The position numbers were made by a program, and so were the translations under genes. Shown here one piece after another: positions 16,806-39,228 of a stretch of DNA of 43,576 nt. The stretch's first letter is position 1, and the number at the start of each line of letters is the position of its first letter. The stretch spans positions 1 through 43,576 of the forward strand of contig JBFEUB010000003.1 in the NCBI GenBank assembly GCA_041547605.1, given 5' to 3'. The notes below the pieces were generated by a model, which saw only the letters and a list, made by a program, of their open reading frames with translations, ran no database searches and was not told the origin of the DNA. This DNA comes from Desulfobacteria bacterium. Its GTDB lineage: Bacteria; Desulfobacterota; Desulfobacteria; Desulfobacterales; C00003060.

Positions 16806-17038
16806 AGCTGAAACTGGAACCAGTACTGGCCATTTGCCTGAAGGCCTGTTTGCTTCATCCTGTCAGAGAAGGGCACATGTGACAGAAAGCGTTACGAAGT
16901 TTGTGCAGTCCTTCCTGCCCGCTCCTTGGTATTCACACAACCCCTGTTTCCTTCTTGCTTTTTCTTCTGTTTCGTTTTAAGCCATTTATTCGGGAAAAGG
17001 TCTTATGATTGCGAAATATCAACCGGGTCGGCAGGTCC

Positions 17039-18562
17039 ATGAAAAAGATTGAAGAAAGCCCGCTCCTTTATGAAATCAGCGAGGCACTCAATGTGAGTCT
17101 GGATCTTAAGAGGTCTCTTTACCGGGTCCTTGACATCCTTTCCAAATCAATGGACATGGTACGGGGTACTATTACCATTCTTAATCCCCTGCGCAACGAG
17201 ATTAGCATCGAAGTGGCCCACGGCCTTTCAAAGGCAGCCATGGAAAGGGGGAAATACAAGTTAGGCGAGGGGATTACGGGCCGTGTCATTGAGACAGGGA
17301 AGGCCCTCGTTGTACCAAAGATCAGCGAGGAGCCAATGTTCTTGAATCGAACCGCCACGAGAAGGGCCATTCATGACGAGGAACTCTCTTTCATCTGCGT
17401 CCCCGTAAAAAAGGGGAACCAGGTCGTAGGAGCCCTCAGTGTTGATCGGCTATTCGATAAGTCCTATTCATTAAGAGATGGCGAAAGACTGCTTTCTATC
17501 ATTGCCACGATGATTGCCCAGCATGTCATCAACCTGGAAACCATCCAGCGCGAAAAGGAGCAGCTTAGAGAAGAAAACAGGCGTCTTCAGCAAGAGCTTT
17601 CCAACAAGTACCGCATTACCAACATTGTGGGAAATAGCAACAAGATGCGGGAGGTCTTTCAAATGATCTCCCAGGTGTGCAAGAGCAATGCCACAGTACT
17701 GATTCGCGGGGAGAGCGGCACCGGCAAAGAGCTGGCTGCCAATGCGATCCACTACAACAGCCTTAGGTCAAAAAACCCTTTTGTAAAGGTCAACTGTGCA
17801 GCCATGCCTACCAATCTCATTGAAAGTGAGCTCTTCGGACATGAGAAAGGAGCATTTACAGGGGCGATCCGTCAGAAGAGGGGAAAGTTCGAACTGGCCA
17901 ATAAAGGGACGATCTTTTTGGATGAAATCGGATCGGTTGGCACGGATGTCCAGGTCAAACTCCTGAGGGTTCTTCAGGAAAAGGAGTTCGAGCGAGTAGG
18001 AGGGTACGAAACGATCAAGGCAGACGTTCGCTTCATAGCGGCTACCAACAAGAACCTGGAACAGGCTGTAGAGGACGGAACTTTTCGAGGAGACCTGTAT
18101 TACAGGTTGAATGTGTTTCCTATTTATATGCCGCCCCTGAGAGAACGCAGAACCGACATTCTGTTGTTGGCAGACCACTTTCTAGAACAATATGCGAAGG
18201 AGAATCAGAAGGACATCCGCCGGTTTTCTACGCCTGCCATCGATATGCTCATGCAGTATCATTGGCCCGGAAATGTACGCGAGCTTGAAAACTGCATTGA
18301 GCGAGCCGTGTTGCTTTGCCAAGAGGGAGTCATTCATAGTTATCACTTACCTCCCACTCTTCAGACAGCAGAAGAGTCCGATACCTTGCCAGACAGGTCT
18401 TTGGAAGAAGCTGTGGCAAATCTGGAACGGGAGATTATTGTGGACGCTTTGAAAACGACGCGTGGCAATATGGCAAAGGCTGCCCAGTTGCTGCGGACAA
18501 CCGAGCGGAAGTTTGCCTACAAGGCGAAGAGACATGAAGTGGACTATCGCCAATATCGTTGA
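17039..18562 (+). CDS. NifA-like sigma54-dependent transcriptional activator (GAF-AAA+-Fis HTH)
   Basis: N-terminal GAF ([15 protein letters not shown]), [40 protein letters not shown]-terminal HTH. Confidence 0.92.
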
Positions 18563-18656
18563 GCTCCAATAGACGTTGCGTTGTAGCCCAGTGTTTAGGG
18601 ATGAAAGATTATAAGACTGACATGCTCTTGGAGGCGTGTTCAAGGAGGAGGAAGAT

Positions 18657-19985
18657 ATGAAATGTGAGACAGTTGAAGACGTCCTCAGGGTGGTTCAAGA
18701 AAAGAATGTTAGTTTCGTCCAGTTCTGGTTCACCGACGTGTTGGGCATCCTGAAAAGCTTCGCGATCACGCCTTCTGAGCTGGAGGAAGGTTTGACCGAA
18801 GGGATGGGTTTTGACGGCTCGTCAATAGAAGGCTTTGCGCGGATTGAAGAGAGCGACATGATTGCCAAGCCGGACCCAACCACTTTTCAATTCTTACCTT
18901 GGAGGGGTCAGGACAAACCAGTTGCCAGGATGTTCTGTGACATTCTGCAACCGGATGGAACTCCTTATGAGGGCGATCCTCGGTATGTCTTCAAACGTGT
19001 TTTGAGCCGGGCGAACAACAAGGGGTTCACGTTTTACCTTGGGCCTGAGTTGGAATACTTCTACTTTGAAAGTAATGAGGCCCCTATAATTCTTGACAAA
19101 GGGGGATATTTCGACACTCGGCCGTTGGACATGGGCAGCGATCTGAGGCGGGAGACGATCTTTGCCCTCCAGGATATTGGGATTCAGGTTGAATACAGCC
19201 ACCATGAAGTTGCTCCCAGCCAGCATGAAATTGATATGCGCTATGACGAAGGATTAAGGATGGCCGACAAGACCATGACCCTCAGGATCGTGGTTAAGGA
19301 AATGGCCAGGCGGAGCGGATTCTATGCCACCTTCATGCCCAAGCCCATCTTTGCTGAAAACGGAAGCGGCATGCATACACACCAGTCGCTCTTTCAGGGA
19401 GAGAAAAACGCTTTTTTCGATGTCAACGACATCTATCATCTATCTGACGTGGGCAAGTGCTATATAGCCGGGATCATGCGTCATGCCCGTGAGATGGGAG
19501 CGATTACCAACCAGTGGGTCAACTCTTACAAACGCCTTGTGCCGGGTTATGAGGCCCCAGTGTATGTTTCCTGGGCTCGGCGGAACCGCTCAGCTATGGT
19601 TCGGGTGCCCATGTACAAGCCGGGCAAAGAACAAGCGACACGCATCGAGTTTCGCTCACCGGATCCGGCGTGCAATCCGTATCTGGCCTTTGCCGTGATG
19701 CTGGCTGCCGGGTTGAAGGGGATTGAGGAGAACTACCCGCTTCCGGACCCAGTGGAGGAAGACATTTATGATATGGATGAAGCGGCACGGGAGAAGGCAG
19801 GCATAGAGTCTTTGCCAGGAAATCTTTTTGAAGCGATTAAGGAAGTTGAAAAGAGTGAGCTGGTTCGTGAGACCCTGGGTGATCACATTTTTAACAAATT
19901 TGTAGAAAACAAGAAGATAGAATGGGATTCGTATCGCACCCACGTGAGCCGTTTTGAGATAGAAAAATATCTTCCGATCATGTAA
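18657..19985 (+). CDS. glnA: Glutamine synthetase type I (short, about 442-aa alpha-like form)
   Basis: FDGSSIEGF, GPELEY, SHHEVAPSQHEI, ATFMPKP..NGSGMH, NSYKRLVPGYEAP, RIEFRSPD. SD AGGAGG precedes ATG 18657. Confidence 0.95.
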   Translation: MKCETVEDVLRVVQEKNVSFVQFWFTDVLGILKSFAITPSELEEGLTEGMGFDGSSIEGFARIEESDMIAKPDPTTFQFLPWRGQDKPVARMFCDILQPDGTPYEGDPRYVFKRVLSRANNKGFTFYLGPELEYFYFESNEAPIILDKGGYFDTRPLDMGSDLRRETIFALQDIGIQVEYSHHEVAPSQHEIDMRYDEGLRMADKTMTLRIVVKEMARRSGFYATFMPKPIFAENGSGMHTHQSLFQGEKNAFFDVNDIYHLSDVGKCYIAGIMRHAREMGAITNQWVNSYKRLVPGYEAPVYVSWARRNRSAMVRVPMYKPGKEQATRIEFRSPDPACNPYLAFAVMLAAGLKGIEENYPLPDPVEEDIYDMDEAAREKAGIESLPGNLFEAIKEVEKSELVRETLGDHIFNKFVENKKIEWDSYRTHVSRFEIEKYLPIM

Positions 19986-21846: not shown

Positions 21847-24800
21847 ATGCCACGACGTGATGACATAAAGAAAGTGATGATTATCAGTTCCGGGCCCATC
21901 ATCATAGGGCAGGCCTGTGAGTTCGACTATTCCGGGACACAGGCGTGCAAGGCCCTCCGTAAACTCGGTTATGAGATTGTTCTGGTCAACTCGAATCCGG
22001 CGACGATCATGACAGATCCCGGCATGGCTGACGCGACGTATATTGAACCCCTCAATTTCCGGGCCATGCAGGAGATCATCGAAAAGGAACGGCCCGATGC
22101 CCTTTTGCCTAATCTGGGCGGGCAGTCCGGTCTCAACCTTTCCTCGGAGCTGTATCGTCGGGGGTTGCTGGACAAATTCGGAGTCCAGATCATCGGTGTT
22201 CAGGCTGATGCCATAGAGCGGGGTGAGGACCGAAGCGCCTTTAAAGACACCATGAAGAGGATCGGCCTGCAATTGCCGAAGAGCGCCCTGGCATACAATG
22301 TGGATGAGGCTGAAAAGATTGCTGCCGAACTTGGCTACCCGGTGGTTATTCGCCCTGCCTATTGTATGGGGGGAACCGGAGGGGGCTTGGTGTACAATGT
22401 GGAAGAATTGCGGGTCGTTGCCAGCCGAGGCATCTCAGCAAGCTTTGTGGGCCAGATACTGGTTGAGGAGTCGGTGTTGGGATGGGAGGAGTTAGAGCTT
22501 GAAGTGGTGCGCGACGCCAAAAACCAGATGATTACGGTCTGTTTTATTGAAAATGTGGATCCCATGGGCGTTCATACGGGCGACTCCTATTGCACAGCGC
22601 CCATGCTCACCATAGATCCTGAACTCCAAAACCGCCTTCAAAAATGGTCCTATGACATTGTGGAGGCCATCCAGGTCATTGGCGGCACAAATATCCAGTT
22701 CGCGCACGATCCAAAGACGGGTCGGGTCGTAGTGATCGAGATCAACCCGAGAACCTCGCGTTCTTCTGCTCTTGCGTCAAAGGCTACAGGTTTTCCCATT
22801 GCCTTTATCTCCGCGATGTTGGCAGGGGGGATGACCTTGGACGAAATCCCCTACTGGCGGGAAGGTACGCTGGAGAAATATACACCGTGGGGGGACTATG
22901 TTGTGGTCAAGTTTGCCCGGTGGGCCCTTGAAAAGTTTGAAGACGCCGAGGACAAGCTCGGCACCCAGATGCGGGCTGTTGGCGAAGTCATGAGCATCGG
23001 GAAGACTTATAAAGAGGCTTTCCAGAAGTCGATTCGATCCCTGGAAAACAGTCGCCATGGGCTTGGCTTTGCCAAAGATTTTTACGAGAGATCCCAGGAC
23101 GAACTCATGGATCTGCTAGCTGAACCCTCAAGCGAGCGGCAGTTTATCATGTACGAGGCTTTGCGAAAGGGTGTCAGCGTTGAAGCGCTTTATGAGAAGA
23201 CCTATATCAAGCCGTGGTTCATCGAGCAAATGAAGGAGCTTGTTGGGTTGGAGGAAGAGATCCTAAAATACAAGGGCAATATTGTGCCAGACGACCTGCT
23301 GGGGCGGGCCAAGAAGGACGGATTTTCAGACCGGTACCTTTCTGAGATCCTTGACATTCCGGAAAAGGATATTAGGGAACGGCGAACCTCTATAAGCGTA
23401 GTCGAGGGTTGGGAGCCTGTGCCGGTGAGCGGGGTGGAAAATGCGGCGTACTATTTTTCTACATATAATGCTCCTGACAAGGTGACCAGTAGCAAAAGGC
23501 GCAAGATCATGGTTCTGGGGGGTGGGCCCAACCGTATCGGCCAGGGGATCGAGTTCGATTACTGTTGTGTTCATGCGGCCTTCGCCATACGTGATGAGGG
23601 GTTCGAGTCGATCATGGTCAACTGTAACCCCGAGACTGTCTCAACCGATTATGACACCTCCGATAAGCTATATTTTGAGCCACTTACTGTAGAGGACGTG
23701 TTGAGCATCTACGGAAAGGAAAAGCCGGAAGGCGTGATTGTTCAGTTTGGAGGGCAGACTCCTTTGAATATAGCCAATGAGCTAGCCGGGACTGGTGTCC
23801 GAATCATCGGGACATCACCGGAGACCATAGATCTGGCTGAGGATCGCGACCGCTTCCGCCAAATGATGCGAAAGCTGGGGATTCCCCAGCCTGAATCCGG
23901 CATGGCGAGCACTCTGGAAGAAGCCCTTGATGTAGCCGAAAGGATTGGCTATCCCCTCATGGTAAGACCGTCGTATGTCCTTGGTGGACGTGCCATGGAG
24001 GTGGTCCATGACGAAGAGATGCTTAAGCACTATGTGGCTGCGGCCGTTGATGTGACGCCAGAGCGGCCTATATTGATCGACAAATTCCTGGAAAATGCGA
24101 TTGAGGCAGAGGCAGACGCCATCGCGGATGGCACAGATGCTTTCGTGCCCGCGGTCATGGAACATATAGAACTTGCCGGCGTGCATTCCGGCGACTCTGC
24201 TTGCGTGATTCCTCCCATCAGCATTCCCGTCAGACACCTCGATACCATTTACGAATATACCAAAAAAATTGCAGTGGAACTCAACGTCATCGGTCTGATG
24301 AATATCCAGTACGCTATAGCCAACGATATGGTTTACATCCTTGAGGCCAACCCTCGCGCATCTCGAACTGTGCCTCTCGTATCAAAGGTGTGCAACATTC
24401 AGATGGCTCGAATTGCTACGCAACTCATGCTCGGCAAAAGGCTCTCCGATCTTAATATTGAGCCTAAATCCATCCCATACTTTGGCGTGAAGGAGGCGGT
24501 CTTTCCATTTCACATGTTTCCAGAGGTCGATCCGCTCCTGGGGCCGGAGATGCGGTCCACGGGAGAAGTTTTGGGACTAGCCGATTCCTTTGGATTGGCC
24601 TTTTACAAGGCCCAGGAGGCCGCACAGCAGTATCTTCCTTCTAACGGGACCGTGCTCATCACAGTATCTCTGAGAGACAGGGAGGCTGTTCTGGACGCGG
24701 CGGGGCAGTTTCACAAACTCGGCTTTCACATCAAGGCCACTGAGGGGACGCAGAGGTTCCTGGCTGACCACGGCATTGAATCCGAGGCCATCCGGAAGTT

Positions 24801-25047
24801 ACACGAAGGTCGGCCCAATATTGTTGACGGGATAATGAACAAAGAAATTCACCTAATCATCAATACGCCCAGCGGCAAACTCAGTAAACACGATGATTCT
24901 TATATCCGCAAAGCAGCGATTAAGTATAAGGTACCCTATATTACCACGCCGGCTGCGGCCGTTGCAGCGGCCAAGGGGATTGCAGCTTACCGGCAGGGTC
25001 ACGGTCAAGTAAAGTCCCTTCAGAGCTACCATGCTGATATCAAGTAG
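21847..25047 (+). CDS. carB: Carbamoyl-phosphate synthase large subunit (copy 2, divergent, no adjacent carA)
   Basis: [58 protein letters not shown]. Confidence 0.95.
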   Translation: MPRRDDIKKVMIISSGPIIIGQACEFDYSGTQACKALRKLGYEIVLVNSNPATIMTDPGMADATYIEPLNFRAMQEIIEKERPDALLPNLGGQSGLNLSSELYRRGLLDKFGVQIIGVQADAIERGEDRSAFKDTMKRIGLQLPKSALAYNVDEAEKIAAELGYPVVIRPAYCMGGTGGGLVYNVEELRVVASRGISASFVGQILVEESVLGWEELELEVVRDAKNQMITVCFIENVDPMGVHTGDSYCTAPMLTIDPELQNRLQKWSYDIVEAIQVIGGTNIQFAHDPKTGRVVVIEINPRTSRSSALASKATGFPIAFISAMLAGGMTLDEIPYWREGTLEKYTPWGDYVVVKFARWALEKFEDAEDKLGTQMRAVGEVMSIGKTYKEAFQKSIRSLENSRHGLGFAKDFYERSQDELMDLLAEPSSERQFIMYEALRKGVSVEALYEKTYIKPWFIEQMKELVGLEEEILKYKGNIVPDDLLGRAKKDGFSDRYLSEILDIPEKDIRERRTSISVVEGWEPVPVSGVENAAYYFSTYNAPDKVTSSKRRKIMVLGGGPNRIGQGIEFDYCCVHAAFAIRDEGFESIMVNCNPETVSTDYDTSDKLYFEPLTVEDVLSIYGKEKPEGVIVQFGGQTPLNIANELAGTGVRIIGTSPETIDLAEDRDRFRQMMRKLGIPQPESGMASTLEEALDVAERIGYPLMVRPSYVLGGRAMEVVHDEEMLKHYVAAAVDVTPERPILIDKFLENAIEAEADAIADGTDAFVPAVMEHIELAGVHSGDSACVIPPISIPVRHLDTIYEYTKKIAVELNVIGLMNIQYAIANDMVYILEANPRASRTVPLVSKVCNIQMARIATQLMLGKRLSDLNIEPKSIPYFGVKEAVFPFHMFPEVDPLLGPEMRSTGEVLGLADSFGLAFYKAQEAAQQYLPSNGTVLITVSLRDREAVLDAAGQFHKLGFHIKATEGTQRFLADHGIESEAIRKLHEGRPNIVDGIMNKEIHLIINTPSGKLSKHDDSYIRKAAIKYKVPYITTPAAAVAAAKGIAAYRQGHGQVKSLQSYHADIK

Positions 25048-25077
25048 AAGGAATCGTAGTCAAAGGGGAATAGGCGT

Positions 25078-26457
25078 ATGAAGTCATTGCAAGACAACTG
25101 CGGTGTGTTCGGTTTGTATTCAGAAACCGAATGTGTGCAGGATATATTTCAGGGAATCGATTTTCTTCAGCACCGGGGGCAGGAGTACTGTGGGATTGCC
25201 ACCTTTGATAAGGGTATTCGCATAGTAACGCATTACGGAAAAGCAGCCAATACGTTCAGGGACCAAGAATTGGATTACTTAAAGGGGACTTGGGGCATAG
25301 GCCATGTGAGTCTGCGGGAACGGCAGCCAGTGAGGTGGCGGTCCCGATTGGGTGAGATTGCCGTGGCATTTGGCGGCAACATTGTCAATGCTCATGAGCT
25401 GATCGAAGAAATGAAGAATCGGGGTAGGGCCTTCTATGATGGTTACAATGTCGAAATAATTTCTAAGATTATTATGGAGGAAAGGGATGTTGTAGCGGGC
25501 ATCCGCGCCCTCTCTAAGATCATTAGAGGGGCCTATTCCCTCGTGGTTTTGACGAGGGACGGCATTTATGCTGCCAGAGATATCTTCGCATTTCGACCGC
25601 TCGTTTTGGGTCAGGGTCTCGGCAAGTATGTTATTGCATCCGAGTCTCGCGCTATTCAGAATTTGGAGATGGAATTCATTCGAGATGTTCGGCCGGGGGA
25701 AATCCTGCTGGTGAACGATAAGGGGTTTCAAACTCTTGCACAGCTTGATTCGCCCCGTAGGGCCCATTGCGCATTTGAATGGGCCTACACGGCAAGCCTC
25801 GATTCAATTATTAATGGAGTCTATGTTCAGGAAGCTCGGAACCGATTGGGTGGGAGCTTGGCACAACGGGATATAGATGAAGGAGACCTCGAGGTAGACA
25901 TTGTAGCGGCCGTGCCAATGTCTGGGATCGGGCATGCACTCGGATACCACAAGCGATCCAAGATTAGCTACCAGGAGGTGTTCCTTTACAACCGGTATGC
26001 AGACCGGAGCTATACGCAGTCAAACCAAGCTGCCCGGGAAAAGATGGCGAAACGAAAGCTCTCTGTATTGCAGCATGCTGTGAGAGGCCAGCGTGTTGTC
26101 CTTTGCGATGACTCGATCGTCCGAGGCACCCAGATCCTATACAAGGTGCGGGATCTCAAAGAGGCTGGTGCTCAAGAGGTGCATGTGCGAATTGCCTGTC
26201 CTCCCCTCATGTATCCCTGTGATTTCGGCATATCCACCCGCACTTATGAAGAGTTGGCAGCCAGGCGGCATTTCAAAACAGGCAATATCACTTCTATGAA
26301 AAAGCTGAGGAAGTTGGAAGCATTGATTTCCGAAAAGATCGGTGCAGACTCTGTCAAATACAACAGCCTCGATGCCTTTGTTTCAGCTTTAGGCATCCCG
26401 AAACAAGAACTCTGCCTGAAGTGCTTTGATGGTCTTGACCCCACAGAAACCCAATAA
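25078..26457 (+). CDS. PurF-like phosphoribosyltransferase with degenerate glutamine-binding site
   Basis: CGVFG, LQHRGQE, PRPP motif LCDDSIVRGT and Fe-S cysteines are kept. GHVRYST is replaced by GHVSLRE, HNGN by FGGN and DSE by NVE. Confidence 0.85.
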   Translation: MKSLQDNCGVFGLYSETECVQDIFQGIDFLQHRGQEYCGIATFDKGIRIVTHYGKAANTFRDQELDYLKGTWGIGHVSLRERQPVRWRSRLGEIAVAFGGNIVNAHELIEEMKNRGRAFYDGYNVEIISKIIMEERDVVAGIRALSKIIRGAYSLVVLTRDGIYAARDIFAFRPLVLGQGLGKYVIASESRAIQNLEMEFIRDVRPGEILLVNDKGFQTLAQLDSPRRAHCAFEWAYTASLDSIINGVYVQEARNRLGGSLAQRDIDEGDLEVDIVAAVPMSGIGHALGYHKRSKISYQEVFLYNRYADRSYTQSNQAAREKMAKRKLSVLQHAVRGQRVVLCDDSIVRGTQILYKVRDLKEAGAQEVHVRIACPPLMYPCDFGISTRTYEELAARRHFKTGNITSMKKLRKLEALISEKIGADSVKYNSLDAFVSALGIPKQELCLKCFDGLDPTETQ

Positions 26458-26661: not shown

Positions 26662-26690
26662 TTGACAGTGCGGTCGGACACCAATATATT
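26662..26690 (+). promoter_or_regulatory. Putative sigma70 promoter of the GAF-ANTAR gene
   Basis: TTGACA-17 nt-TATATT, followed 7 nt later by ATG 26698. Confidence 0.65.
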
Positions 26691-26697
26691 TAATATT

Positions 26698-27393
26698 ATG
26701 CCAGATATCGAGGCTTCTGAAAGACATATCGAAGCCCTCACCCGAATCAGCAAGGCGATTACCTCAGAGCGTTACATAGAGGACGTTCTGCGACTTGTGG
26801 TTACGGTGACGGCTAAGACCATGCGTTCCAAGATTTGCTCTCTTTGGCTCTTGGATGAAAACGAAAATGCCTTACAGCTTCGGGCAACCCAGAGCATTAG
26901 CGAAGACTATCTGAAGGAACGGTCTCTGAAAATTGGGGAGGGCATTGCAGGGCAGGTGGCCCTGACCCAAGAGGCCAGGTCCGTGTTGAATGTTTTAGAT
27001 GAACCCGATTACAAGGAGAAGGAACTAGCCAGGAATGAGGGACTGGTTTCAATGCTGAGCGTTCCGATGGTGGTCAAAGACAGGGTCGTTGGCGTGATCA
27101 ACTGCTACACATCCGAACCTCATGAGTTTACAGAAACCGAGAAGAATGTGTTGACCACCGTGGCCAATGCAGCAGCCGTGGCCATTGAAAATACAGAGCT
27201 GATGGTAAAAACCAGAGTGATTCAAGAGGAGTTGGAGGCAAGAAAGCTTATCGAGAGGGCAAAAGATTTGTTGATGACGCGTCGGGGGTTGTCGGGGGCG
27301 GACGCATATCGGTGGATTCAACGACGAAGTATGGATGTGCGCAAGTCCATGAAGGAAATTTCAGAGGCAATAATATTGACCGACGATATGTAA
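26698..27393 (+). CDS. GAF-ANTAR RNA-binding antitermination regulator
   Basis: GAF (IGEGIAGQVA, SMLSVPM, VVGVINCY) plus ANTAR (LEARKLIERAKDLLM...AYRWIQRRSMD..KSMKEISEAII). Confidence 0.92.
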   Translation: MPDIEASERHIEALTRISKAITSERYIEDVLRLVVTVTAKTMRSKICSLWLLDENENALQLRATQSISEDYLKERSLKIGEGIAGQVALTQEARSVLNVLDEPDYKEKELARNEGLVSMLSVPMVVKDRVVGVINCYTSEPHEFTETEKNVLTTVANAAAVAIENTELMVKTRVIQEELEARKLIERAKDLLMTRRGLSGADAYRWIQRRSMDVRKSMKEISEAIILTDDM

Positions 27394-27444
27394 GCAACAC
27401 TTAAAATCTCGTGGGGTATCACAGGGCCCGAAGCACAAAAGCTG

Positions 27445-27473
27445 TTGACAGGTGTGAGCTTTATTAATAAAAT
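27445..27473 (+). promoter_or_regulatory. Sigma70 promoter for the glutamate-synthase-like/redox operon
   Basis: TTGACA (27445-27450), 17-nt spacer, TAAAAT (27468-27473). Confidence 0.8.
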
Positions 27474-27485
27474 ATGAGTGGTTTC

Positions 27486-27527
27486 AGGGTTACAATGGTG
27501 TGACTCTCAAACGACGACACTGAGGTC
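27486..27527 (+). promoter_or_regulatory. ANTAR-target RNA (dual hexaloop hairpins)
   Basis: P1 AGGGTTAC-AATGGT-GTGACTCT and P2 GAC-ACTGAG-GTC. Both loops are 6 nt with A1 and G4 and are closed by C-G. P2 overlaps the 5' arm of the terminator. Confidence 0.8.
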
Positions 27528-27561
27528 CAACTGACCCACATGGGTAGTTGGGCTTTTTTTT
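27525..27561 (+). terminator. Intrinsic leader terminator (attenuator)
   Basis: GTCCAACT(g)ACCC-acat-GGGTAGTTGGGC stem followed by T8, located between the promoter and ATG 27593. Confidence 0.85.
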
Positions 27562-27592
27562 GTCAAAAACAGGAATTAAGGAGGAATAGGCC

Positions 27593-29158
27593 ATGTCATT
27601 TAGTAAACCAAATCGCAGTGCAGCCACCTTAACGACTACTAGGGTAGCACCTGCGCCGATCTCCGGCATCTGTGTCACATGTTTGGATGGTTGTGAGGGG
27701 CCGTGTGAGATCGGGCGATCCGCCCTCAGGGGGAGAGAGGTCATCTATCCCATCCCATTTGGAAAGATTACAGCTGGCTCTGAAAAGGATTATCCTGTTG
27801 ACTTTTCCCATTTGAATATCCAGGGGACTGCCGTCGGGTCCGTGGGCGTTGAGGCCGATCCTGACAAAGCGACCTTTCCGGTTGTGGATACCACCACGGC
27901 ACTCGGTGCTGATGGAAGCATCAAACTTGATTTTCCGGTGTTCACGGGCGCCGTGGGATCAACCGACATTGCCCGGATCAACTGGACAGATGTGGCTGTC
28001 GGTGCTGCCATATCCGGGGTCATCGTAGTAGCCGGAGAAAATATCTGCGGCATGGACCCCCAGGCTGAGTTTAGTAATGGAAAAATTTTGCGGTCCCCCG
28101 AGATGGAGCGCAGGGTCCATGCGTTCAGGGAATGGTATAATGGCACGGGAGGGATCATCGTCCAGGCCAATGTTGAAGATACCAAGTTAGGCGTGCCGGA
28201 ATATGTGATTGAAAAGCTGGGCATAGAAATCTTTGAACTGAAGTGGGGACAGGGTGCAAAAGACATTGGAGGCGAGGTGAAGCTCCCGTCCATAGAGCGG
28301 GCCCTTCAGCTGAAGGAACGGGGCTACATTGTGCTTCCGGACCCTACCAATCCTGCTGCCCAGAAGGCTTTCAAGGCAGGGGGCATTACCGAGTTTGAGC
28401 GCCATTCCCGTCTCGGGATGGTTGATGAGGATGCCTTCCATAAGGAAGTGGAGCGCCTCCGCAGCGTTGGGGCAAAGTACGTTACTTTGAAGACCGGGGC
28501 ATATCGGCCTGCTGACCTGGCCCGCGCCATTAAGTATTCTTCTGATTCAAAGATTGATCTGTTGACCATAGATGGGGCTGGCGGAGGCACTGGGATGAGC
28601 CCCTGGCGGATGATGAACGAATGGGGCATTCCTACGGTGCAACTAGAGTCTCTGGCCTATCAGATGTGTGAGAAAATGAGGGCCAAAGGGGCCTATATTC
28701 CACCCATTGCCATTGCAGGGGGGCTCTCCCTGGAAGACCATATATTTAAGGCCATCGCGCTAGGCGCTCCTCACGTGAAAGCCATTTGTCTAGGAAGGGC
28801 CATGTTGACCGCCGCCATGGTGGGCAAGACCCATGGTAAATTGATGGCACAGAAGATGGAAGATGAAGGGGAAGACCCGAGCGATGGATACCTCAAGCTT
28901 TTTGCTGTGGCAGCCCAACTCAAAGAACGGTTCGGCGATGATTTTGCCAAGCTCCCGGCGGGAGCCATTGGTATGTATTCCTACATTGACAGACTGAAAC
29001 AAGGTTTGCAACAGCTCATGGCAGGAGCCCGAAAGTTTGCGCTTCAGTACATCGACCGTGATGACCTTGTTGCCCTTACCCGGGATGCAGCAGAGGTCTC
29101 TGGTATTGCCTACGTCATGGAGAGTGATGCTGAGGAGGTTGAAAAGATTTTGGGCTAG
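27593..29158 (+). CDS. Stand-alone FMN-binding glutamate synthase family protein (GltB FMN domain only)
   Basis: ELKWGQGAKDIGGE, VTLKTG, TIDGAGGGTGMSP, EWGIPT, IAGG, FKAIALGA. N-terminal CxxCxxxCxxxC. No Ntn amidotransferase or GXGXG domain. Confidence 0.85.
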   Translation: MSFSKPNRSAATLTTTRVAPAPISGICVTCLDGCEGPCEIGRSALRGREVIYPIPFGKITAGSEKDYPVDFSHLNIQGTAVGSVGVEADPDKATFPVVDTTTALGADGSIKLDFPVFTGAVGSTDIARINWTDVAVGAAISGVIVVAGENICGMDPQAEFSNGKILRSPEMERRVHAFREWYNGTGGIIVQANVEDTKLGVPEYVIEKLGIEIFELKWGQGAKDIGGEVKLPSIERALQLKERGYIVLPDPTNPAAQKAFKAGGITEFERHSRLGMVDEDAFHKEVERLRSVGAKYVTLKTGAYRPADLARAIKYSSDSKIDLLTIDGAGGGTGMSPWRMMNEWGIPTVQLESLAYQMCEKMRAKGAYIPPIAIAGGLSLEDHIFKAIALGAPHVKAICLGRAMLTAAMVGKTHGKLMAQKMEDEGEDPSDGYLKLFAVAAQLKERFGDDFAKLPAGAIGMYSYIDRLKQGLQQLMAGARKFALQYIDRDDLVALTRDAAEVSGIAYVMESDAEEVEKILG

Positions 29159-29249: not shown

Positions 29250-29459
29250 ATGTTGAACATTATCTGTAAACACAACTGCAAGTCATGTTATGCTGAGCCT
29301 GTTTGCGCTGTGGATGCAATCATAGACCAGCAAGGTTCCATATATGTGGAGACCGAAAAATGTATTGGCTGCGGGTGTTGTCGCACGGCATGCGTGACCT
29401 TTGGGTATGATCAGGCTTTGAAAGACAAGACTGTAGAGTGGCTGAAGGGTGCTGCGTAG
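29250..29459 (+). CDS. Small 4Fe-4S ferredoxin-like protein
   Basis: SD AAGGAGGT. CKHNCKSC...CAVDAI and CIGCGCCRTAC motifs. Confidence 0.8.
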   Translation: MLNIICKHNCKSCYAEPVCAVDAIIDQQGSIYVETEKCIGCGCCRTACVTFGYDQALKDKTVEWLKGAA

Positions 29460-29649: not shown

Positions 29650-31464
29650 ATGTACGGATATACCGGTCGTTGCCTTCGGGTCAACCTGTCCGATGAGAAG
29701 CACTCGGTTGAAGTAATTTCACCCGAGTTGCTGACCCGATTTGTAGGCGGACGGGGTCTTGGGGTCAAGATGTACTCAGATGAGGTCGGCCCTAAAACGG
29801 ACCCCTTGGGGCCAGAGAACAAATTGGTTTTTGTCTCGGGTCCCCTTGTCGGCACGGGTGCCGTCACTGGGGCCTCTTGCAATGTGATCACAAAGAGCGC
29901 CCTGTCCGGAACCATTGGTTGTGCAAAGATGCGGGGGCACTTTGGGGCAGAACTGAAGTTCGCCGGATTCGACATGATCATCGTTGAAGGGAGGGCGGCA
30001 TCACCGGTCGTCCTGTCTATCCTGGACGATAAGGTGAGTATCCAGCCGGGGCTTCAATATTGGGGCCGCACTACGTCAGAATCAGAGGAAATCTTTAAGA
30101 AAAATCTCACCGACGATTGGGCGGCCCGGGAGACATACCTGGTCTCTATCGGCCCAGCAGGCGAGAAATTAGTCCCTTTGGCGAACATCATTAATGACGG
30201 ATTCTTATCCGTTGGGGGTGCGGGCATTGGCGCTGTCATGGGATCCAAGAATCTCAAGGCCATCGCCGTCAGGGGGAGCCGTTCGTTGTCAGTTGCAGAC
30301 AGCGATCGGTTTGTACGGGTCGTTACGAACCTGATCAATAAATTGAACAGCGCCCCACTCACTTCTCATTCCATGTCCGCGTGGGGATCCGCCTTTTTTG
30401 TGGATCTCTGTTATCAGAAGGGGATACTGCCTCAGAAGAATTTTCTGGGTGCCCCTTTTACGGAATTAAGAGAAATTGGGACCGAGGCCCTGTCGAATGC
30501 CTTTGCTTTTAGGAGCAGCGGGTGTTTTGCTTGCCCTATTGCCTGTCTCAAGAAGACGGATGTGAATAATCCCCTCTTTAAAGGCAGGGGCATGGCGCCA
30601 ACTTACTGGGCTATTGGCGCTCTTGGGCTTAACTGTGGGATTAAAGACCTGAGCATCATTGGTATGGCGAATATTATCTGCGCCGAGATGGGACTCGATC
30701 CAATTGCCGCGGCTGGCACCGTGGCTACGGGTATGGAGTTGATGGAAAAGGGGATCGCTTCCCAGGACAACTTAAAGCTTGCACTGCGGTTTGGGCAGGG
30801 AGAGGACCTTCTTCAGGCCCTGACGCTCATGGCCACAAAAAAAGGTTACGCCGAGAGAATTGGAAAAGGGGCGCGGGCCTTGGCCGAGGAATACGGTCAA
30901 CCCGAGTGTTTTATGGGCGTTAAGGGGATGCCTATGGCTCCCTTTGATCCGAGAGCTATTCAGGGCATGGGTTTGCATTTTGCTACCTGTAATTACGGGC
31001 CCCATCATCTGTACGCCTACACCTTCATCGAAGAGGTGTTGAATGTCCACGAGGAACTGGATCCCTGGAGCACCGAGGGCAAACCTGAACTGGTTAAGCG
31101 ATACCAGGATATGGCGGCGATCATGGATTCGCTGGGGCTTTGCAACTGGCCGCTGCTGGGGCTCAAGTTCAATAATCTCGTTCCCATGATCAATAGTGGT
31201 CTGGGCACTGACCACCGTGCAGATGATCTCTTGGGGATCGGAGAACGAATCTGGAACCAGGAAAGACTGTTTAACATGGGAGCCGGATTTCACAATTCGC
31301 ACGACACATTGCCCAACAGATTTTTCAAAGAACCGATTTCAGATGGGCCGGCTCAGGGGCAGATTAGCAAGGTGGACGAGATGCTTCCCAAGTACTATGA
31401 GATTCGAGGCTGGAGCGAGAAAGGTGCGCCCAAGGCCGACAGATTGGAGGCCTTGGAGCTGTGA
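29650..31464 (+). CDS. Aldehyde:ferredoxin oxidoreductase (AOR)-family protein with degenerate tungstopterin/catalytic motifs
   Basis: End-to-end AOR architecture (GGRGLG, GAELKFAG, SIGPAGE, GAVMGSKNLKA, CFACPIAC, DPR, DSLGLC, ERLFN, YYEIRGW). Several cofactor residues are substituted. Confidence 0.9.
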   Translation: MYGYTGRCLRVNLSDEKHSVEVISPELLTRFVGGRGLGVKMYSDEVGPKTDPLGPENKLVFVSGPLVGTGAVTGASCNVITKSALSGTIGCAKMRGHFGAELKFAGFDMIIVEGRAASPVVLSILDDKVSIQPGLQYWGRTTSESEEIFKKNLTDDWAARETYLVSIGPAGEKLVPLANIINDGFLSVGGAGIGAVMGSKNLKAIAVRGSRSLSVADSDRFVRVVTNLINKLNSAPLTSHSMSAWGSAFFVDLCYQKGILPQKNFLGAPFTELREIGTEALSNAFAFRSSGCFACPIACLKKTDVNNPLFKGRGMAPTYWAIGALGLNCGIKDLSIIGMANIICAEMGLDPIAAAGTVATGMELMEKGIASQDNLKLALRFGQGEDLLQALTLMATKKGYAERIGKGARALAEEYGQPECFMGVKGMPMAPFDPRAIQGMGLHFATCNYGPHHLYAYTFIEEVLNVHEELDPWSTEGKPELVKRYQDMAAIMDSLGLCNWPLLGLKFNNLVPMINSGLGTDHRADDLLGIGERIWNQERLFNMGAGFHNSHDTLPNRFFKEPISDGPAQGQISKVDEMLPKYYEIRGWSEKGAPKADRLEALEL

Positions 31465-32009: not shown

Positions 32010-35000
32010 ATGAAGCATAACAAGGATAGTCACAACATCATCGGTGCCCTCATGGTATTAGGCGGTGGCATTGCCGGCATCCAGGCGTCTATGGATCTGG
32101 CTGATGCTGGTTTCCGAGTGTATTTGGTCGAGGCATCTGCGGCCATAGGTGGCGTGATGGCAGCTCTCGACAAGACCTTTCCTACCAATGACTGTTCGAT
32201 CTGAATCTTAGCCCCCAGACTCGTTGAGTCTGCCAGGCATCCCAACATCGAAATTCTAACCAATGCGACTTTGAGGGAAGTTTCGGGGTCTGCCGGAAAC
32301 TTTAAGGTGACAGTGCTGAAACAACCCCGCTACGTGGATGAAACAAAATGCACGGCCTGCGGGATTTGCGCCACCTATTGCCCCGTTCTGGTTCCTGATC
32401 CCTATGACGAAAACATGGCTCATCGCAGAGCGATCTACATCCCTTACACACAGGCGGCTCCATCGGCCTATGTGGTCGACCCATACCATTGCCTTTTTCT
32501 GAATAGGCAAGAATGCAAGCAGTGTACCCGAACTTGTGAGGCCAAAGCCATCAATCTTGACCAGAAGCCCGAGATAATAACCTATGAAGTGGGGGGGCTG
32601 ATCCTGGCTCCCGGCTTCTCAAGGTTTGATCCTGGGCGGTTGCCTGCCTATGGGTATGCGGATTGTCTCAATGTAGTTACTGGTTTAGAGTTTGAGCGGA
32701 TCTGCTGTGCGTCTGGGCCGTCCATGGGAAAGATCCAGAGGCCCTCGGACCGAAATAAACCCGAGAAGATAGCGATTGTCTTATGTGTAGGCAGCCGGGA
32801 CAAGGCTTGCGGCAATCCTTACTGTTCCTCGGTTTGTTGTAAGTATGCGATCAAGGATGCAATCGTGGCGTTAGAACATGAGCCTGATTTAGACATCACG
32901 ATATTTTTCATGGACATTCGCACGTACGGCAAGGATTTTGAGAAGTTTTATCAGCGTGCGAAAGCAGCGGGTGTGAAGTTTGTGCGTAGCAGGGTCTCTG
33001 AGATTAGAGAGGACCCCCGAACCAATGATCTCACCTTAAAGTACGTGACAGAAGATGGGGGCCTGAGGAAAGACACCTTTAACTTGGTGGTGCTGGCCCA
33101 CGGGCTTGAGGCTCCTGCGGGCAGCAGTAACCTCGCCTTGGCAGCAGAGATCGGACTGAACCAGTACAATTTTTGCGAGACGGGCCTGTTTCGACCACTT
33201 GATAGCACCAGAGAAGGCATCTTTGTCGCCGGTGCGTTTCAAGGACCCAAATCGATTCCCGACAGCGTGATCCAGGCTGGTGGTGCTGCCGCCTCGGCAG
33301 CCGAGCTGTTGGCTGCGGTCCGTGGAACGCTGGTCAGAGAGAAGACGTACCCTGAGGAGCGCACAGACGCTGACGCACCATCGAAAATTGGGGTGTTTGT
33401 ATGCCACTGCGGCAAGAATATTGCCGGGGTGGTGGATGTAGAAGCAGTGATCAAATACGCAGAGAGCTTGCCTGATGTGGCGATGGTGGAACGTAACCTC
33501 TACTCTTGTTCTTCGGATACCCAGGCTTTGATTGCAAAAACCATAGCTGAGAAGGGTTTGAATCGTGTGGTGGTGGCCGCCTGCACGCCCAGAACGCATG
33601 AGGTGCTTTTTCAAGACACCCTGAGAGAAGCGGGCCTCAACAAATGTCTTGTTGAGATGGTTAATATTCGGGATCAATGCTCATGGGTGCATATGCATGA
33701 GCGGGAGGCAGCCACGGAAAAGGCCAAGGAACTTGTCCGGATGGCTGTTGCCAAGGCGAGACAGATTCAGCCGCTTCCAGAGACAACTATTGAGGTCATT
33801 CCGAAGTGTCTTGTCATCGGTGGCGGACTCTCGGGTATGACCGCGGCCCTCAGCTTAGCCCGGCAGGGCTTTGAATGTTACTTGGTGGAACGTAGCAGTG
33901 ATCTTGGAGGCAATCTCCGGCACACCTATTTTACGTTGGAGGGGCCGGATCCCCAAGAACACCTTAAGCGACTTATTGAGCAAGTGGAATCAAACGATAA
34001 GATTCATCTCTTCACGAAGACCGCCATTCAAGAGGTTGCAGGCTTTGTTGGCAACTTCAAGACCGTCCTGTCTTTCGGGAGCGGAACAGGAGTAAAGACA
34101 GAAGAAATCGAACACGGAGCCATCATTGTGGCCACAGGGGCCACGGCCTATGAACCCGACGCGTATCTGTATGGCCGGCATAAAAACGTGGTGCTTCAGC
34201 AAGTATTGGAAGAAGGGCTAGCCCTTGGGAAGGTCGATCCGAAAGACCTTAAACAGGTCGTCATGATCCAGTGTGTGAGCTCAAGGGACGAGACCCATAC
34301 CTATTGCAGTGCGATTTGTTGCAACCAGGCGATCAAGAATGCCTTGAAGATTAAAGAACTTAACCCTGAAGCCAATGTAAGCATCTTGTATCGCGATGTG
34401 ATGAGTTACGGCTTTAGTGAGGATTACTACAGTCTTGCCAGGGATCAAGGCATTGTTTTTATCCGCTACAGCCCGGATAAAAAGCCCAAGGCAGAGAATG
34501 TTGAGGGCAAGGTGCGCGTGACAGTTAAGGACCCGATAGTGAAGCAGAATGTGATCATTCATGCTGATCTCTTGGCTTTAAGCACGGCCATGGTTCCATA
34601 TGACAACAGGGACTTCGTTGAAAAGCTGAAGGTACCGCTATCCTCCGATCAGTTTTTCTTAGAATCTCATGCACAATTGAAACCCGTGGATTCTTATGTG
34701 GATGGTATCTATCTTTGCGGCAAAGCGCAGTTTCCCAAGCCCATCAATGAGTGCATCGCCCAGGCCAAGGCTGCTGCAGCCAAAGCTGCCATTTTGTTGG
34801 CCAAGGGCTATGTGATGGCAGAACCGATCATTGCCTCGTGCGACATGGACACCTGCATGGGATGCGGTATCTGTGCCTATTTGTGTCCATATAGTGCCAT
34901 CCAAATGACGAAGGTGGGCAAGCTGAAAAAAGCCGCAATTGTTGCAGCAGCCTGCAAGGGATGCGGTGTGTGTGCCTCTTATTGTCCAACCAGGTCCATT

Positions 35001-35066
35001 GCCATGGGCCGCTTCACGGATGAGCAGATTGAGGAGCAGATTAGGGCTTTTGGGGAAGGAAGTTAG
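32010..35066 (+). CDS. hdrA: Selenocysteine-containing tandem HdrA-like (BamE-like) flavo-iron-sulfur protein, about 1018 aa
   Basis: ORFs 32010-32204 and 32271-35066 are in one frame joined by TGA 32202 in [12 protein letters not shown][U]ILAP. Two GGGxxG FAD domains, YCS.VCC motifs, VFVCHCG, ferredoxin domains. Confidence 0.9.
32216..32232 (+). promoter_or_regulatory. Putative bacterial SECIS hairpin (hdrA)
   Basis: CAGACTC-GTT-GAGTCTG, 11 nt after the UGA; the apical loop starts with G. Confidence 0.7.
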
Positions 35067-35067
35067 G

Positions 35068-35179
35068 CATTGAGGAGGAAATTTTTTTCATAAGCCGTGA
35101 TAATATTCAAAAAGCTTGATTGAAGGACCTTGCCAAGTTTACGGTATCACGGCTTGTTCGAAAAACCCCCTCCTCAATG
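35068..35179. repeat. 112-nt intergenic inverted repeat
   Basis: Perfect 11-bp outer arms CATTGAGGAGG/CCTCCTCAATG and perfect 11-bp inner arms AAGCCGTGATA/TATCACGGCTT. Confidence 0.75.
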
Positions 35180-35211
35180 AAGGGAAGATTACGAGTAGAA
35201 GGAAAGGGATC

Positions 35212-35961
35212 GTGCCAAAATCATTTGAGCCCCGAATTCTCGGTTTCTTATGCCACTGGTGCTGCTATGCGGCAGCTGATGCAGCCGGGGTGTCGCGTTT
35301 TCAGTATCCGCCCCATGTCCGTGTCATCCGGGTGATGTGCACGGGAAGGATAGACGCTGTGTTTCTAGTGGATGGGTTTGTCAACGGGGCTGACGGCGTC
35401 TTTGTTGGTGGCTGACACCTGGGCGAGTGTCATTACCGGGACGGTAATTACGAAGCCATCAACAAGTTCCATCTGGTCAGGCGTATCCTTGATGATCTTA
35501 AGGTCAATCCGGATAGATTATCCCTGGAGTGGGTTTCTGCAGCCGAGGCGCCACGTTTTGTCAACGTCATCACAGAATTTACCGGGCGTATCAGAGATCT
35601 TGGCTCGCTCGGAACGAGTGAAGGGCTGGACGCGCATCATCTCAGGATTAAGTTAAAGGCCGCCAAGATGGCTCTTGAGGGTAAGCGGCTGCGAATGGTC
35701 TTTGCAAGGCAGGCCAAGTACAGGAAGCATGAGGGGGCCTACCGTGAAATTCCGTCTGATCATAAGCTGCATGCAGAAATGGATAGGGCCCTTTCAGATG
35801 AGCTGGCTACCAACGGATTGCTTCTCTATTTGCAGGACAGTCCCCGCAGGGTGGATGAATTGGCAGGGCTTTTGGAGGTCTCTCCGGACGATGTGGTCGC
35901 CTGCTTTAAGAAGCTTGAAAAGAAGGGGCTCGTGGAGTCGAACAGGCTTGTTGGTTATTAG
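35212..35961 (+). CDS. Selenocysteine-containing MvhD/FlpD-like (BamF-like) 2Fe-2S protein with C-terminal extension, 249 aa
   Basis: GTG start. FLCHWCCYAAAD.AG, IRVMCTGR, GADGVFVGG[U]HLGECHY, with TGA 35413 at the conserved Cys. The frame stays open to 35961. Confidence 0.88.
35432..35448 (+). promoter_or_regulatory. Putative bacterial SECIS hairpin (mvhD-like)
   Basis: ATTACCG-GGA-CGGTAAT, 16 nt after the UGA; G-rich apical loop. Confidence 0.7.
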
Positions 35962-35966
35962 CAATT

Positions 35967-36061
35967 GGTTGAGTGGTTGAGTACGAATGGTTAAGTGGTT
36001 GAGTCGTTGAGCGGTCGAACACAATGGAAGCATTTATTTACTCAACCATTCAATTAATGAC
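35967..36061. repeat. Inverted octamer tandem-repeat array (GGTTGAGT type, second copy)
   Basis: ggttgagt x2, ggttaagt, ggttgagt, cgttgagc, ggtcgaac ... actcaacc-attcaatt. Confidence 0.7.
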
Positions 36062-36094
36062 GCATGACAAAGGACAGGAAGCGGAGTAAGCAGA

Positions 36095-36577
36095 ATGACA
36101 AGTGACAAAGCAGAAGATATCATTTTTGACCAATTAGACCAGCACTTCAGGGATGAAGTTGCTGAGAAGATCGGTTTGGAAGAGATCAAGCCATGCTATA
36201 CCTGCGGGTCTTGTACGGCGGTGTGTCCTGTACATGAGGTGATTGAAGACTTTGATCCCAGACGCATGATTCACATGATTTTGCTGGGCATGCGTAGAGA
36301 GGTGCTCTCCTCTGATCTGATCTGGTTCTGTTGTTTGTGTAACGCATGCTTTTTTGTATGTCCCCAAAAGATAAGGTTTAGCCGGGTAGCTACTGAGCTG
36401 AGAGACCTGGCTTTAGAGGAAGGCCATGTGGACGAAGATTTTTTGAACAGACTGGAGGCATTGCATCCCTACTTGCAGGATTTGTGTCGCCGGACCCTGT
36501 TCGGAAAAGTAAAAGAAGGATTCTGTGGATCTCATACGATGCCGTGTTGGAGGAAACACACCAAGACGACTCCGTAA
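36095..36577 (+). CDS. HdrC-like 2x[4Fe-4S] protein
   Basis: CYTCGSCTAVCP, FDPRRMI..ILLG, IWFCCLCNACFFVCP. Confidence 0.85.
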   Translation: MTSDKAEDIIFDQLDQHFRDEVAEKIGLEEIKPCYTCGSCTAVCPVHEVIEDFDPRRMIHMILLGMRREVLSSDLIWFCCLCNACFFVCPQKIRFSRVATELRDLALEEGHVDEDFLNRLEALHPYLQDLCRRTLFGKVKEGFCGSHTMPCWRKHTKTTP

Positions 36578-36689
36578 AAAGTCCATCTACGGCGTTGTGC
36601 TTCATCTTTCGTCATTGCGACGTACTTATTAGTACGCCTCACTCCTCAAGGGTCGCACGCCTTGTATATGAACTTTTTACGAAGCCGTC
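36565..36689. repeat. REP-like 125-nt palindromic element overlapping the hdrC-like stop codon
   Basis: GACGACTCCGTAAAAAGTCCATCTAC matches the reverse complement of the right arm, GACGGCTTCGTAAAAAGTTCATATAC, at 22/26. Inner hairpin CGTAC..GTACG. Confidence 0.75.
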
Positions 36690-36771
36690 TGTCTATTGAG
36701 TTATTGAAAGACCATATAACCTGATCCTTGGACATTCGGGTCTAAATTTCAATCATTCGGAGATAACAGGA

Positions 36772-39097: not shown

Positions 39098-39228
39098 TTT
39101 CCATTCCGAAATTTCGCATGTTCGAATTGGAAAGTCGACTAACCGATATCCCTTGACCGGCATGCTCCCCGCAAGGCCCGTCCGGAAGGGTGGGGAGGCT
39201 TCAGTGTTGAGGGCTTGTTGAGATATAA

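Follow-up and report, generated by a model that had tools for sequence, protein, structure and literature searches.

A predicted ANTAR-type transcription attenuator beside a GAF-ANTAR regulator gene in a Desulfobacterales genome

Is the short intergenic region between the gene for a GAF-ANTAR protein and a glutamate-synthase-like gene a transcription attenuator, and does the neighboring protein control it? The question arises on contig JBFEUB010000003.1 of the Desulfobacteria bacterium assembly GCA_041547605.1 (Desulfobacterales; C00003060), whose positions 1 to 43,576, read on the forward strand, were analyzed as a whole and are called the window below. An initial annotation had proposed that positions 27445 to 27592 hold a complete ANTAR antitermination switch next to its cognate regulator. 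The dual-hexaloop model of ANTAR target RNAs and its defining features have been described (PMC3369931). At the sequence level, these features are present at the locus and conserved in relatives, with a linker whose length depends on how far P1 extends. We consider it quite probable that the locus is an ANTAR-type transcription attenuator serving one gene, with read-through brought about by the adjoining GAF-ANTAR protein. The anatomy, the energetics, the conservation, the covariation and the pairing of one protein with one site come from the sequence; we infer protein binding, dimerization, what the ligand is, which way it acts and where transcription starts.

Anatomy of the leader and of the adjoining regulator

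The features on which the argument rests are as follows, in amino acids (aa), nucleotides (nt) and base pairs (bp).

26698..27393, plus strand: regulator gene, 231 aa, one-component GAF + ANTAR protein (PF13185, PF01590, PF13492, PF03861)
27445..27473, plus strand: leader promoter of the sigma-70 type, TTGACA at 27445-27450, 17-nt spacer, TAAAAT at 27468-27473; 11 of 12 consensus positions matched
27486-27493 / 27500-27507, plus strand: core of hairpin P1, 8 bp, loop AAUGGU at 27494-27499 (A1, G4)
27481..27512, plus strand: extended P1 stem, 12 pairs with one C.C mismatch
27508-27515, plus strand: P1-P2 linker, 8 nt, counted from the core P1
27516..27527, plus strand: hairpin P2, GAC at 27516-27518, loop ACUGAG at 27519-27524 (A1, G4), GUC at 27525-27527
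27525..27561, plus strand: intrinsic terminator, stem 27525-27553 with 12 pairs, one bulged G and loop ACAU, followed by U8 at 27554-27561
27580-27584, plus strand: Shine-Dalgarno sequence GGAGG, with the ATG of the next gene at 27593
27593-29158, plus strand: predicted regulated gene, 521 aa, N-terminal Cys cluster, glutamate-synthase-like flavin mononucleotide (FMN) TIM barrel (PF01645)

The promoter, P1 with its AAUGGU loop, the 8-nt linker and P2 with its ACUGAG loop were all found where the initial annotation had placed them. Sequence and fold also bear out its claim that P2 shares an arm with a terminator ending in a U8 tail: GUC at 27525-27527 is at once the 3′ arm of P2 and the first bases of the 5′ strand of the terminator. 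Both hexaloops are closed by C-G and A-U pairs, to which RNAfold adds one more A-U pair within the P1 loop. The linker measures 8 nt with the 8-bp core P1 and 3 nt if the conserved P1 extension forms; in eut leaders, P1 and P2 are separated by 5 to 12 nt (PMC3369931). The transcript is predicted to start near 27480, at the foot of P1. A simple gapless scan of the window for terminators did not list the one at 27525-27561, probably because of the bulge in its stem.

The 88-nt leader folds at -41.6 kcal/mol (z-score -5.35), and none of 200 shuffled sequences was as stable. Evaluated separately, the extended P1 (27481-27512) gave -12.2, P2 -1.7 and the terminator -17.8 kcal/mol. Because the terminator is far stronger than P2, the free RNA should terminate transcription, and read-through would therefore need protein binding.

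The adjoining gene encodes a protein with GAF-profile matches (PF13185, 76.5 bits; PF01590, 72.5 bits; PF13492, 61.0 bits) and an ANTAR domain (PF03861, 62.7 bits versus a cut-off of 27.3), and it is the only PF03861 gene found in this genome, which is 95% complete. An AlphaFold (AF2) model of the protein (pLDDT 85.7) consists of a GAF fold, a helix of 51 residues (146-196) that links GAF to ANTAR, and a three-helix ANTAR bundle. The best structural relatives of the ANTAR domain by sequence are the Rv1626-type protein 1s8n (E 5.7e-14), EutV (6wsh), NasR (4akk) and AmiR (1qo0). Lys143, Tyr164 and Met172 of EutV have been named as RNA contacts (PMC8934654). They align, in 6wsh, with K183, Y204 and M212 of the regulator; K183 and M212 do not vary among 35 orthologue sequences, most of which also have Y at position 204. 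A homodimer prediction with two copies of the regulator (alignment A3) gave scores of 0.00 and 0.05, where the mark is 0.42, and speaks neither for nor against dimerization.

Conservation of the leader and competing explanations

Among 61 related genomes, G000 counted, 47 have the regulator; within the genus it was found in 29 of the other 36 genomes. Downstream of the orthologous gene, a strict scan found the same architecture at 21 of 29 loci in the genus and, in other families of the order, at 9 of 18. The 21 genus leaders were aligned (alignment A1), as were 30 leaders that include the window's own (alignment A2). In the genus alignment, the A and the G at loop positions 1 and 4 of both hairpins, the closing C-G and A-U pairs, the GAC and GUC arms of P2 and the T tract are invariant (21/21). 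The same loop positions, the closing pairs of both loops and the P2 arms are also invariant in all 30 leaders of the wider alignment, while the other loop positions vary.

In the genus alignment, 92.0% of the cells over P1 and P2 together are paired, versus 32.6-44.0% when the partners are slid, and P1 by itself reaches 90.1%. The covariation score is 0.260 versus 0.176 for shuffled alignments, and 0 of 500 shuffles reached the observed score. Altered on both sides are 6 of 13 P1 pairs, a count that was reached by 49 of 500 shuffles and hence is a weak measure alone. In the same alignment the terminator has 11 pairs with 95.2% of cells paired, two of them changed on both sides, and the 3′ arm of P2 is common to the terminator in every genus leader.

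The promoter is conserved with the hairpins. TTGAC lies upstream of the leader at all 30 leader loci, and in 20 of the 21 genus leaders it stands 49-53 nt before the P1 loop. A strict promoter test (TTGACN, 16-19 nt, TANNNT) was passed by 10 of 30 leaders, and the position of TTGAC by itself was used instead. As TTGAC recurs at this position, the leader has its own conserved promoter, and its transcript should begin at the foot of P1.

We built a covariance model of P1 and P2 from the 30 leaders (R1), with the window's site in its training set. In the window's own genome, R1 found one strong site, at 27485-27530 (54.4 bits); five other matches all had E > 2 (150 of 1411 candidates scored). With E up to 0.001, it found a single site in each of 26 genus genomes out of 37, and two sites in none. 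A site occurs in 26 of the 30 genus genomes that have the regulator versus none of the 7 that lack it; related genomes are not independent, and these counts are descriptive. In the four genomes with the regulator and without an R1 site (G023, G026, G032 and G035), the leaders score low in R1 and are visible by eye or to an independent model, R2, described below. A wider scan with one genome per species returned at least 495 confirmed relatives of the regulator, of which the best 80, with 57-88% identity, were examined as loci. They come from Desulfobacterales/Desulfobacteria, Syntrophales-type Thermodesulfobacteriota, Anaerolineales, Aerophobetes, Omnitrophota, Clostridia and Planctomycetia metagenome-assembled genomes (MAGs). 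R1 found 36 matches in 33 of these 80 loci, and all 36 lie on the strand of the regulator, both strands having been searched.

Protein and leader fall into matched types. Proteins with the motif LMT[RQ]R[GSA]LSG (residues 200-208) pair with variable P2 loops, A followed by any two, G and any two; proteins with LMRRR[ND]M pair with AA[AC]GGC loops, at L017, L019, L021 and L023 in the genus and in similar forms in other families. In a tree of the GAF domain only, the four LMRRR[ND]M members of the genus do not form one clade; the tree calls for three changes, and a single change suffices in 0% of 200 bootstrap trees. This suggests that the ANTAR C terminus and the leader type change together, as would be expected of a cognate pair, and it is an indication, not a proof. 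That the adjoining gene encodes the cognate regulator, as initially proposed, is thus supported by its PF03861 match, its standing as the sole ANTAR gene, the sole strong RNA site, co-occurrence in the genus and the co-changing types.

A number of observations weigh against an ANTAR attenuator at this locus. A relaxed scan for two A1/G4 hexaloop hairpins with a linker of up to 20 nt and a downstream T-run found one site in the window versus a mean of 1.1 in 100 Markov shuffles, and the whole genome has 97 raw tandem-hexaloop sites, 11 of them with a terminator overlapping P2. The bare motif is not beyond chance, and it is the conservation and covariation seen in relatives that carry the case. 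In the genus the three P2 pairs are constant, so that P2 gives no covariation signal. A eutP leader with a 3-nt linker, the length that would result here from the extended P1, lost induction (PMC3369931). Strongly supported branches of the GAF tree by themselves permit a single origin of the second leader type. The 521-aa protein is just distantly glutamate-synthase-like; a better PF01645 gene (198 bits) lies elsewhere, on contig C124, and no P1/P2-type leader was found for it. The window's leader is also the most divergent of its group, with the P2 loop ACUGAG versus a wider consensus of AAAGGC. An independent covariance model built from 28 leaders outside the genus (R2) gave the window's site 8.6 bits (E 1.4), the second of three matches in the window, which is not significant. 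Its search of the window's own genome did not return the site and gave one unrelated weak match (E 4.84; 150 of 1182 candidates scored).

Expression data come from one RNA-Seq run (X1), labelled as a seawater metagenome and used as contigs, with 73% of sampled words present and depth in 16 of 30 bins. A contig of this RNA library covers 27390-27990 with zero mismatches, bridging the terminator into the 521-aa gene, and indicates at most that read-through molecules can exist. It begins at 27390, upstream of the predicted promoter, and read-in from the regulator gene is possible; where transcripts start or end, and at what level, cannot be read from contigs, and an RNA library may carry some DNA.

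A covariance-model search had been named in the initial annotation as a check, and its outcome was divided. R2 recognized the orthologous leaders of relatives: among the 29 genus loci, searched with filters off, L023, L021, L019 and L017 scored 29.5-44.5 bits and seven leaders of the window's type 20.8-25.1 bits (E 0.0003-0.004), a total of 11 of 29 at E < 0.01. The remaining leaders of the window's type scored lower, and the window's own was among the lowest. The wider leader family is thus recognizable, as predicted RNAs, at the orthologous position in relatives; the window copy aligns with those of the genus (alignment A1) and has drifted far from the AAAGGC-loop consensus.

The chance expectation of about one bare motif per window and the low R2 score would also suit a plainer arrangement, in which the stem-loop with its U8 tract merely terminates or insulates the regulator gene, the next gene is transcribed from a separate promoter, P1 is a 5′ stabilizing hairpin and the hexaloops have no protein partner. 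It would agree with this that no other terminator lies between the regulator stop codon (27393) and 27525. However, the terminator lies downstream of the conserved promoter and would also stop that promoter's own transcripts. Hexaloops without a partner are also hard to reconcile with loop positions and closing pairs that are invariant in 30 of 30 leaders while their neighbors vary, with an RNA that is found, among genus genomes, only where the ANTAR gene is found, and with the recognition of relatives' orthologous leaders by R2 (11/29 genus loci). We regard this arrangement as very improbable beside an ANTAR-controlled attenuator.

The leader might instead be a real attenuator under other control, whether as an RNA that itself binds a metabolite, through a different RNA-binding protein or through kinetics that depend on Rho/NusA. 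That the GAF-ANTAR protein binds the leader is deduced from the features above, and in a MAG of 95% completeness a second regulator could be unassembled. An Rfam search, however, matched nothing in the window at gathering score, and nothing within 27380-27620 even with E up to 10, which lends no support to known riboswitches. The RNA between P1 and the terminator has neither the length nor the complexity of a known aptamer. The motif, moreover, is the one that ANTAR domains recognize, and protein and RNA types change together. We hold control by another factor to be very improbable.

Finally, the GAF-ANTAR protein could bind the hexaloops and act on mRNA stability or translation, as reported for mycobacterial ANTAR targets. 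Actinobacterial ANTAR RNAs have been described as acting by translational repression (bioRxiv 10.1101/660928), and P1 would stand at the predicted 5′ end of the transcript. Against this, the hairpins stop 53 nt before the Shine-Dalgarno sequence, with no overlap, and in every genus leader the 3′ arm of P2 belongs also to a strong terminator with its U tract. Such an action seems very improbable, and transcription attenuation is the reading that we retain.

The leaders of relatives vary in several further ways. The terminator loops of L008, L012 and L029 hold 2-3 tandem copies of a 9-nt unit (approximately cccaagagg), which lengthen the loop from 4 nt to 13-31 nt and leave the stem undisturbed. 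At L026 and L027 (genomes G019 and G022; L061 is near-identical), a gene for a TPP-dependent oxidoreductase-like protein lies between regulator and leader, and the leader is found about 2.7 kb downstream on the same contig. Some loci of other families (L030, L036, L119, L110 and L104) have three hexaloop hairpins or two separate model matches per locus. At L134, L104 and L124, a model match lies upstream of the regulator gene itself, an arrangement that would allow autoregulation.

Proposed switching, sensor domain and regulated genes

In the mechanism that we propose for the attenuator, a constitutive-looking promoter would yield a transcript from about 27480. The stable P1 hairpin would form first, before the RNA reaches the P2 segment. 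Unaided, GUC at 27525-27527 would be drawn into the stronger terminator stem, and RNA polymerase would halt at the U8 tract ahead of the 521-aa gene, a default OFF state. With its GAF domain in the active ligand state, the protein would bind the A1/G4 hexaloops, P1 and then P2, presumably as a dimer formed through its long coiled-coil helix, by analogy with EutV. Bound protein would keep the 3-bp P2 closed, the terminator could then not nucleate, and read-through would extend into 27593-29158 and perhaps into the ferredoxin and aldehyde:ferredoxin oxidoreductase (AOR) genes that follow. The signal would most likely report nitrogen status, with glutamine and 2-oxoglutarate as examples.

What the GAF domain might sense can be approached through its relatives. 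The closest named ones are 3e0y (a Geobacter GAF domain, function unknown) and the GAF domains of PtsP/EI-Ntr, 3ci6 (E 9.4e-14) and 3trc. NCBIfam models matched the regulator at 65.6 bits (NF008283, PtsP) and 54.3 bits (TIGR01817, NifA), both far under their whole-protein cut-offs. A Foldseek search with the AF2 model gave at least 499 matches at E up to 0.001; the top ones listed are GAF-domain structures, with 3ci6 and 3trc at ranks 4-7 (24-25% identity), and no full-length GAF-ANTAR structure is among the matches listed. The GAF domain of NifA binds 2-oxoglutarate. That of EI-Ntr binds glutamine (PMC4848567). By analogy, the ligand of the regulator may be a nitrogen-status signal such as one of these two, a reasoned guess that we put forward tentatively. 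The initial annotation had suggested the same two compounds, and the GlnA, GDH and NadE genes beside orthologous regulators, described below, give the suggestion some further basis. A broader proposal joins the sensor to the two matched recognition types, LMTRRGLSG with relaxed P2 loops, in which A1 and G4 alone are fixed, and a long P1, and LMRRRNMK with the canonical AAAGGC loops. Carried by an otherwise vertically inherited GAF domain, these would be natural orthogonal one-protein/one-RNA switches, and the GAF domain, which keeps 57-65% identity in at least five phyla, would sense glutamine or 2-oxoglutarate directly. We consider this proposal doubtful and, taken whole, rather unlikely.

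Further features flank the switch on either side.

26662..26690, plus strand: promoter-like site before the regulator gene, TTGACA-17-TATATT, in agreement with the consensus at 11 of 12 positions
29250..29459, plus strand: 69-aa 4Fe-4S ferredoxin-like open reading frame (ORF) with weak NCBIfam ferredoxin matches
29650-31464, plus strand: AOR gene, next after the ferredoxin-like ORF

The ATG of the regulator stands 7 nt after the -10 hexamer of the promoter-like site, no Shine-Dalgarno sequence was found upstream of it, and the regulator mRNA is probably leaderless. The same arrangement recurs in 9 genus loci among 28 upstream regions, including L002-L004, L008, L011, L013, L021 and L028. A TTG at 26662 that had been listed as the regulator start was rejected; it is the -35 box of the gene's own promoter.

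The product of the predicted regulated gene is, as far as its profile matches go, glutamate-synthase-like and no more. Its PF01645 match (52.5 bits versus a cut-off of 20.4) covers only profile positions 186-309 of 369. No NCBIfam family matched it, and a sequence search of the PDB found no natural relative, designed TIM barrels only. Foldseek likened it to a generic FMN barrel, with alpha-hydroxy-acid oxidases above glutamate synthase 1ofd (rank 47) and all TM scores at 0.31-0.43. The idea that it is the organism's only glutamate-synthase-type gene was ruled out by the 198-bit gene on contig C124. A search of the 95%-complete genome for a PF00310 amidotransferase domain, the expected partner, gave no match.

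The 69-aa ferredoxin-like ORF is possibly co-transcribed with the 521-aa gene, and the order gltB-like gene, ferredoxin gene, AOR gene is retained at L056 and L058. A homologue of the 521-aa protein lies downstream of the regulator, on the same strand, in 29 of the 80 further loci; several other loci end early. Of 40 other downstream ORFs at these loci, the 24 larger or nearer ones were scanned and encode 3 glutamine synthetases (GlnA), 4 glutamate dehydrogenases (GDH) and 1 glutamine-dependent NAD synthase (NadE), the remainder being unrelated or unnamed. The theme of the genes beside orthologous regulators is, by these predicted functions, ammonium assimilation.

After the AOR gene, positions 32271-39936 (plus strand) hold genes for an HdrA2-like protein (863 bits, under the cut-off of 1100) and for NuoE/NuoF-like and ferredoxin-type proteins. 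These genes may form an electron-bifurcating module, which could feed the glutamate-synthase-like enzyme.

Upstream of the regulator, nearly all genes at 1005-26457 (plus strand) use or make glutamine: hisH/hisF, carA, guaA, carB, purF, a giant GlmS-like gene, pyrG, a NifA-like sigma-54 activator gene, glnA, nadE, a second carB and a purF-like gene. A glutamine-amidotransferase island so dense, ending at a GAF-ANTAR switch, is unusual. It includes two tandem pairs of carB and purF type, at 5685-10397 and 21847-26457. CarB1 and CarB2 share 52% identity, and each passes the CarB cut-offs. The second PurF-like protein shares 33% identity with the first, scores 316 bits, under the purF cut-off of 350, and may differ in function. 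The GlmS-like protein (11327-15085, plus strand) has 1252 aa, of which the middle, about 302-917, matches glmS models at 229-257 bits versus cut-offs of 381-418, and about 300 residues at each end are unmatched. The activator gene lies directly before a type I glnA (17009-19985, plus strand), and its product is of the NifA type with a GAF domain (TIGR01817, 536.7 bits versus a cut-off of 528.85). It is the second GAF-based nitrogen regulator in the window, and its GAF domain is 24% identical to that of the GAF-ANTAR protein.

Comparison with known ANTAR systems

Knowledge of ANTAR antitermination and of its connection with nitrogen genes dates from 2012, and in the literature searched the GAF-ANTAR sensor type is unstudied. 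PMC3369931 states that no GAF-ANTAR protein had been characterized; in 2020, NasR and the LOV protein PAL were given as the only characterized one-component ANTAR proteins, with no GAF-ANTAR protein among them (PMC7496416). A review of 2025 gives GAF only as a domain architecture in the text available (PMC12591593), and our literature search brought up no later work on such a protein. The supplementary files of PMC3369931, in their available, possibly incomplete, form, contain none of the terms GAF, Desulfobacter, Desulfococcus and Desulfatibacillum.

The EutV/eutP-type antiterminators of Enterococcus faecalis (PMC3369931, PMC8934654) resemble the leader in their two A1/G4 hexaloop hairpins, their conserved closing pairs and a P2 that lies within an intrinsic terminator, and the RNA contacts K143, Y164 and M172 of EutV are kept here as K183, Y204 and M212. 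The sensor of EutV is a REC domain phosphorylated by a kinase, whereas here a GAF domain is fused to ANTAR in one component. The eut locus has several target sites; here the genome holds a single site, before a glutamate-synthase-like gene. Unlike the P1 of the EutV/eutP type, P1 here is long, with 12 pairs, conserved and covarying.

A second comparison is with the ANTAR substrates predicted before glutamate synthase(-like) genes in the Firmicutes Desulfotomaculum reducens and Carboxydothermus hydrogenoformans (PMC3369931), and the REC-ANTAR gene within the Clostridium thermocellum GOGAT cluster (PMC4676874). The Firmicutes cases share the RNA mechanism, the kind of gene and the nitrogen-assimilation theme; their regulators are annotated as response-regulator ANTAR proteins, whereas here the sensor is a GAF domain and the host a member of the Desulfobacterales (Thermodesulfobacteriota).

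NasR and the nasF leader of Klebsiella (PMC7496416, PDB 4akk) are likewise a one-component protein, with a ligand domain joined to ANTAR, and a leader terminator before a nitrogen-assimilation operon; the sensor of NasR is a nitrate-binding NIT domain, in contrast to the GAF domain here. GnfK/GnfR, which act on the nif, glnK and amtB leaders of Geobacter sulfurreducens (PMC2995071), provide a deltaproteobacterial ANTAR antiterminator of nitrogen genes, and the targets of GnfR carry a conserved element of the CA..G..G type upstream of and overlapping terminators, as here. GnfR is a response regulator that serves several operons within a sigma-54 cascade, whereas here a stand-alone GAF protein serves one site.

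For the sensor domain, the nearest named sequence relatives are the GAF domains of EI-Ntr (PtsP) and NifA. The likeness is one of overall sequence and, for EI-Ntr, also of fold; a ligand in common would be conjecture. Their outputs are a phosphotransferase and an AAA+ activator, whereas the output here is ANTAR.

With one regulator, one RNA site, a promoter and a terminator, the locus is about the simplest form that such a system can take, and its regulator family is conserved at 57-88% identity among the best 80 relatives. It would be a convenient model for what a GAF domain senses and how it switches ANTAR, and would annotate the gating of a glutamate-synthase-like enzyme in uncultured relatives of marine sulfate reducers. 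What sets it apart from the known systems is the unstudied GAF sensor, the simplicity of one protein and one site, the long P1, the relaxed P2 loop and a hint of co-switching between protein and RNA.

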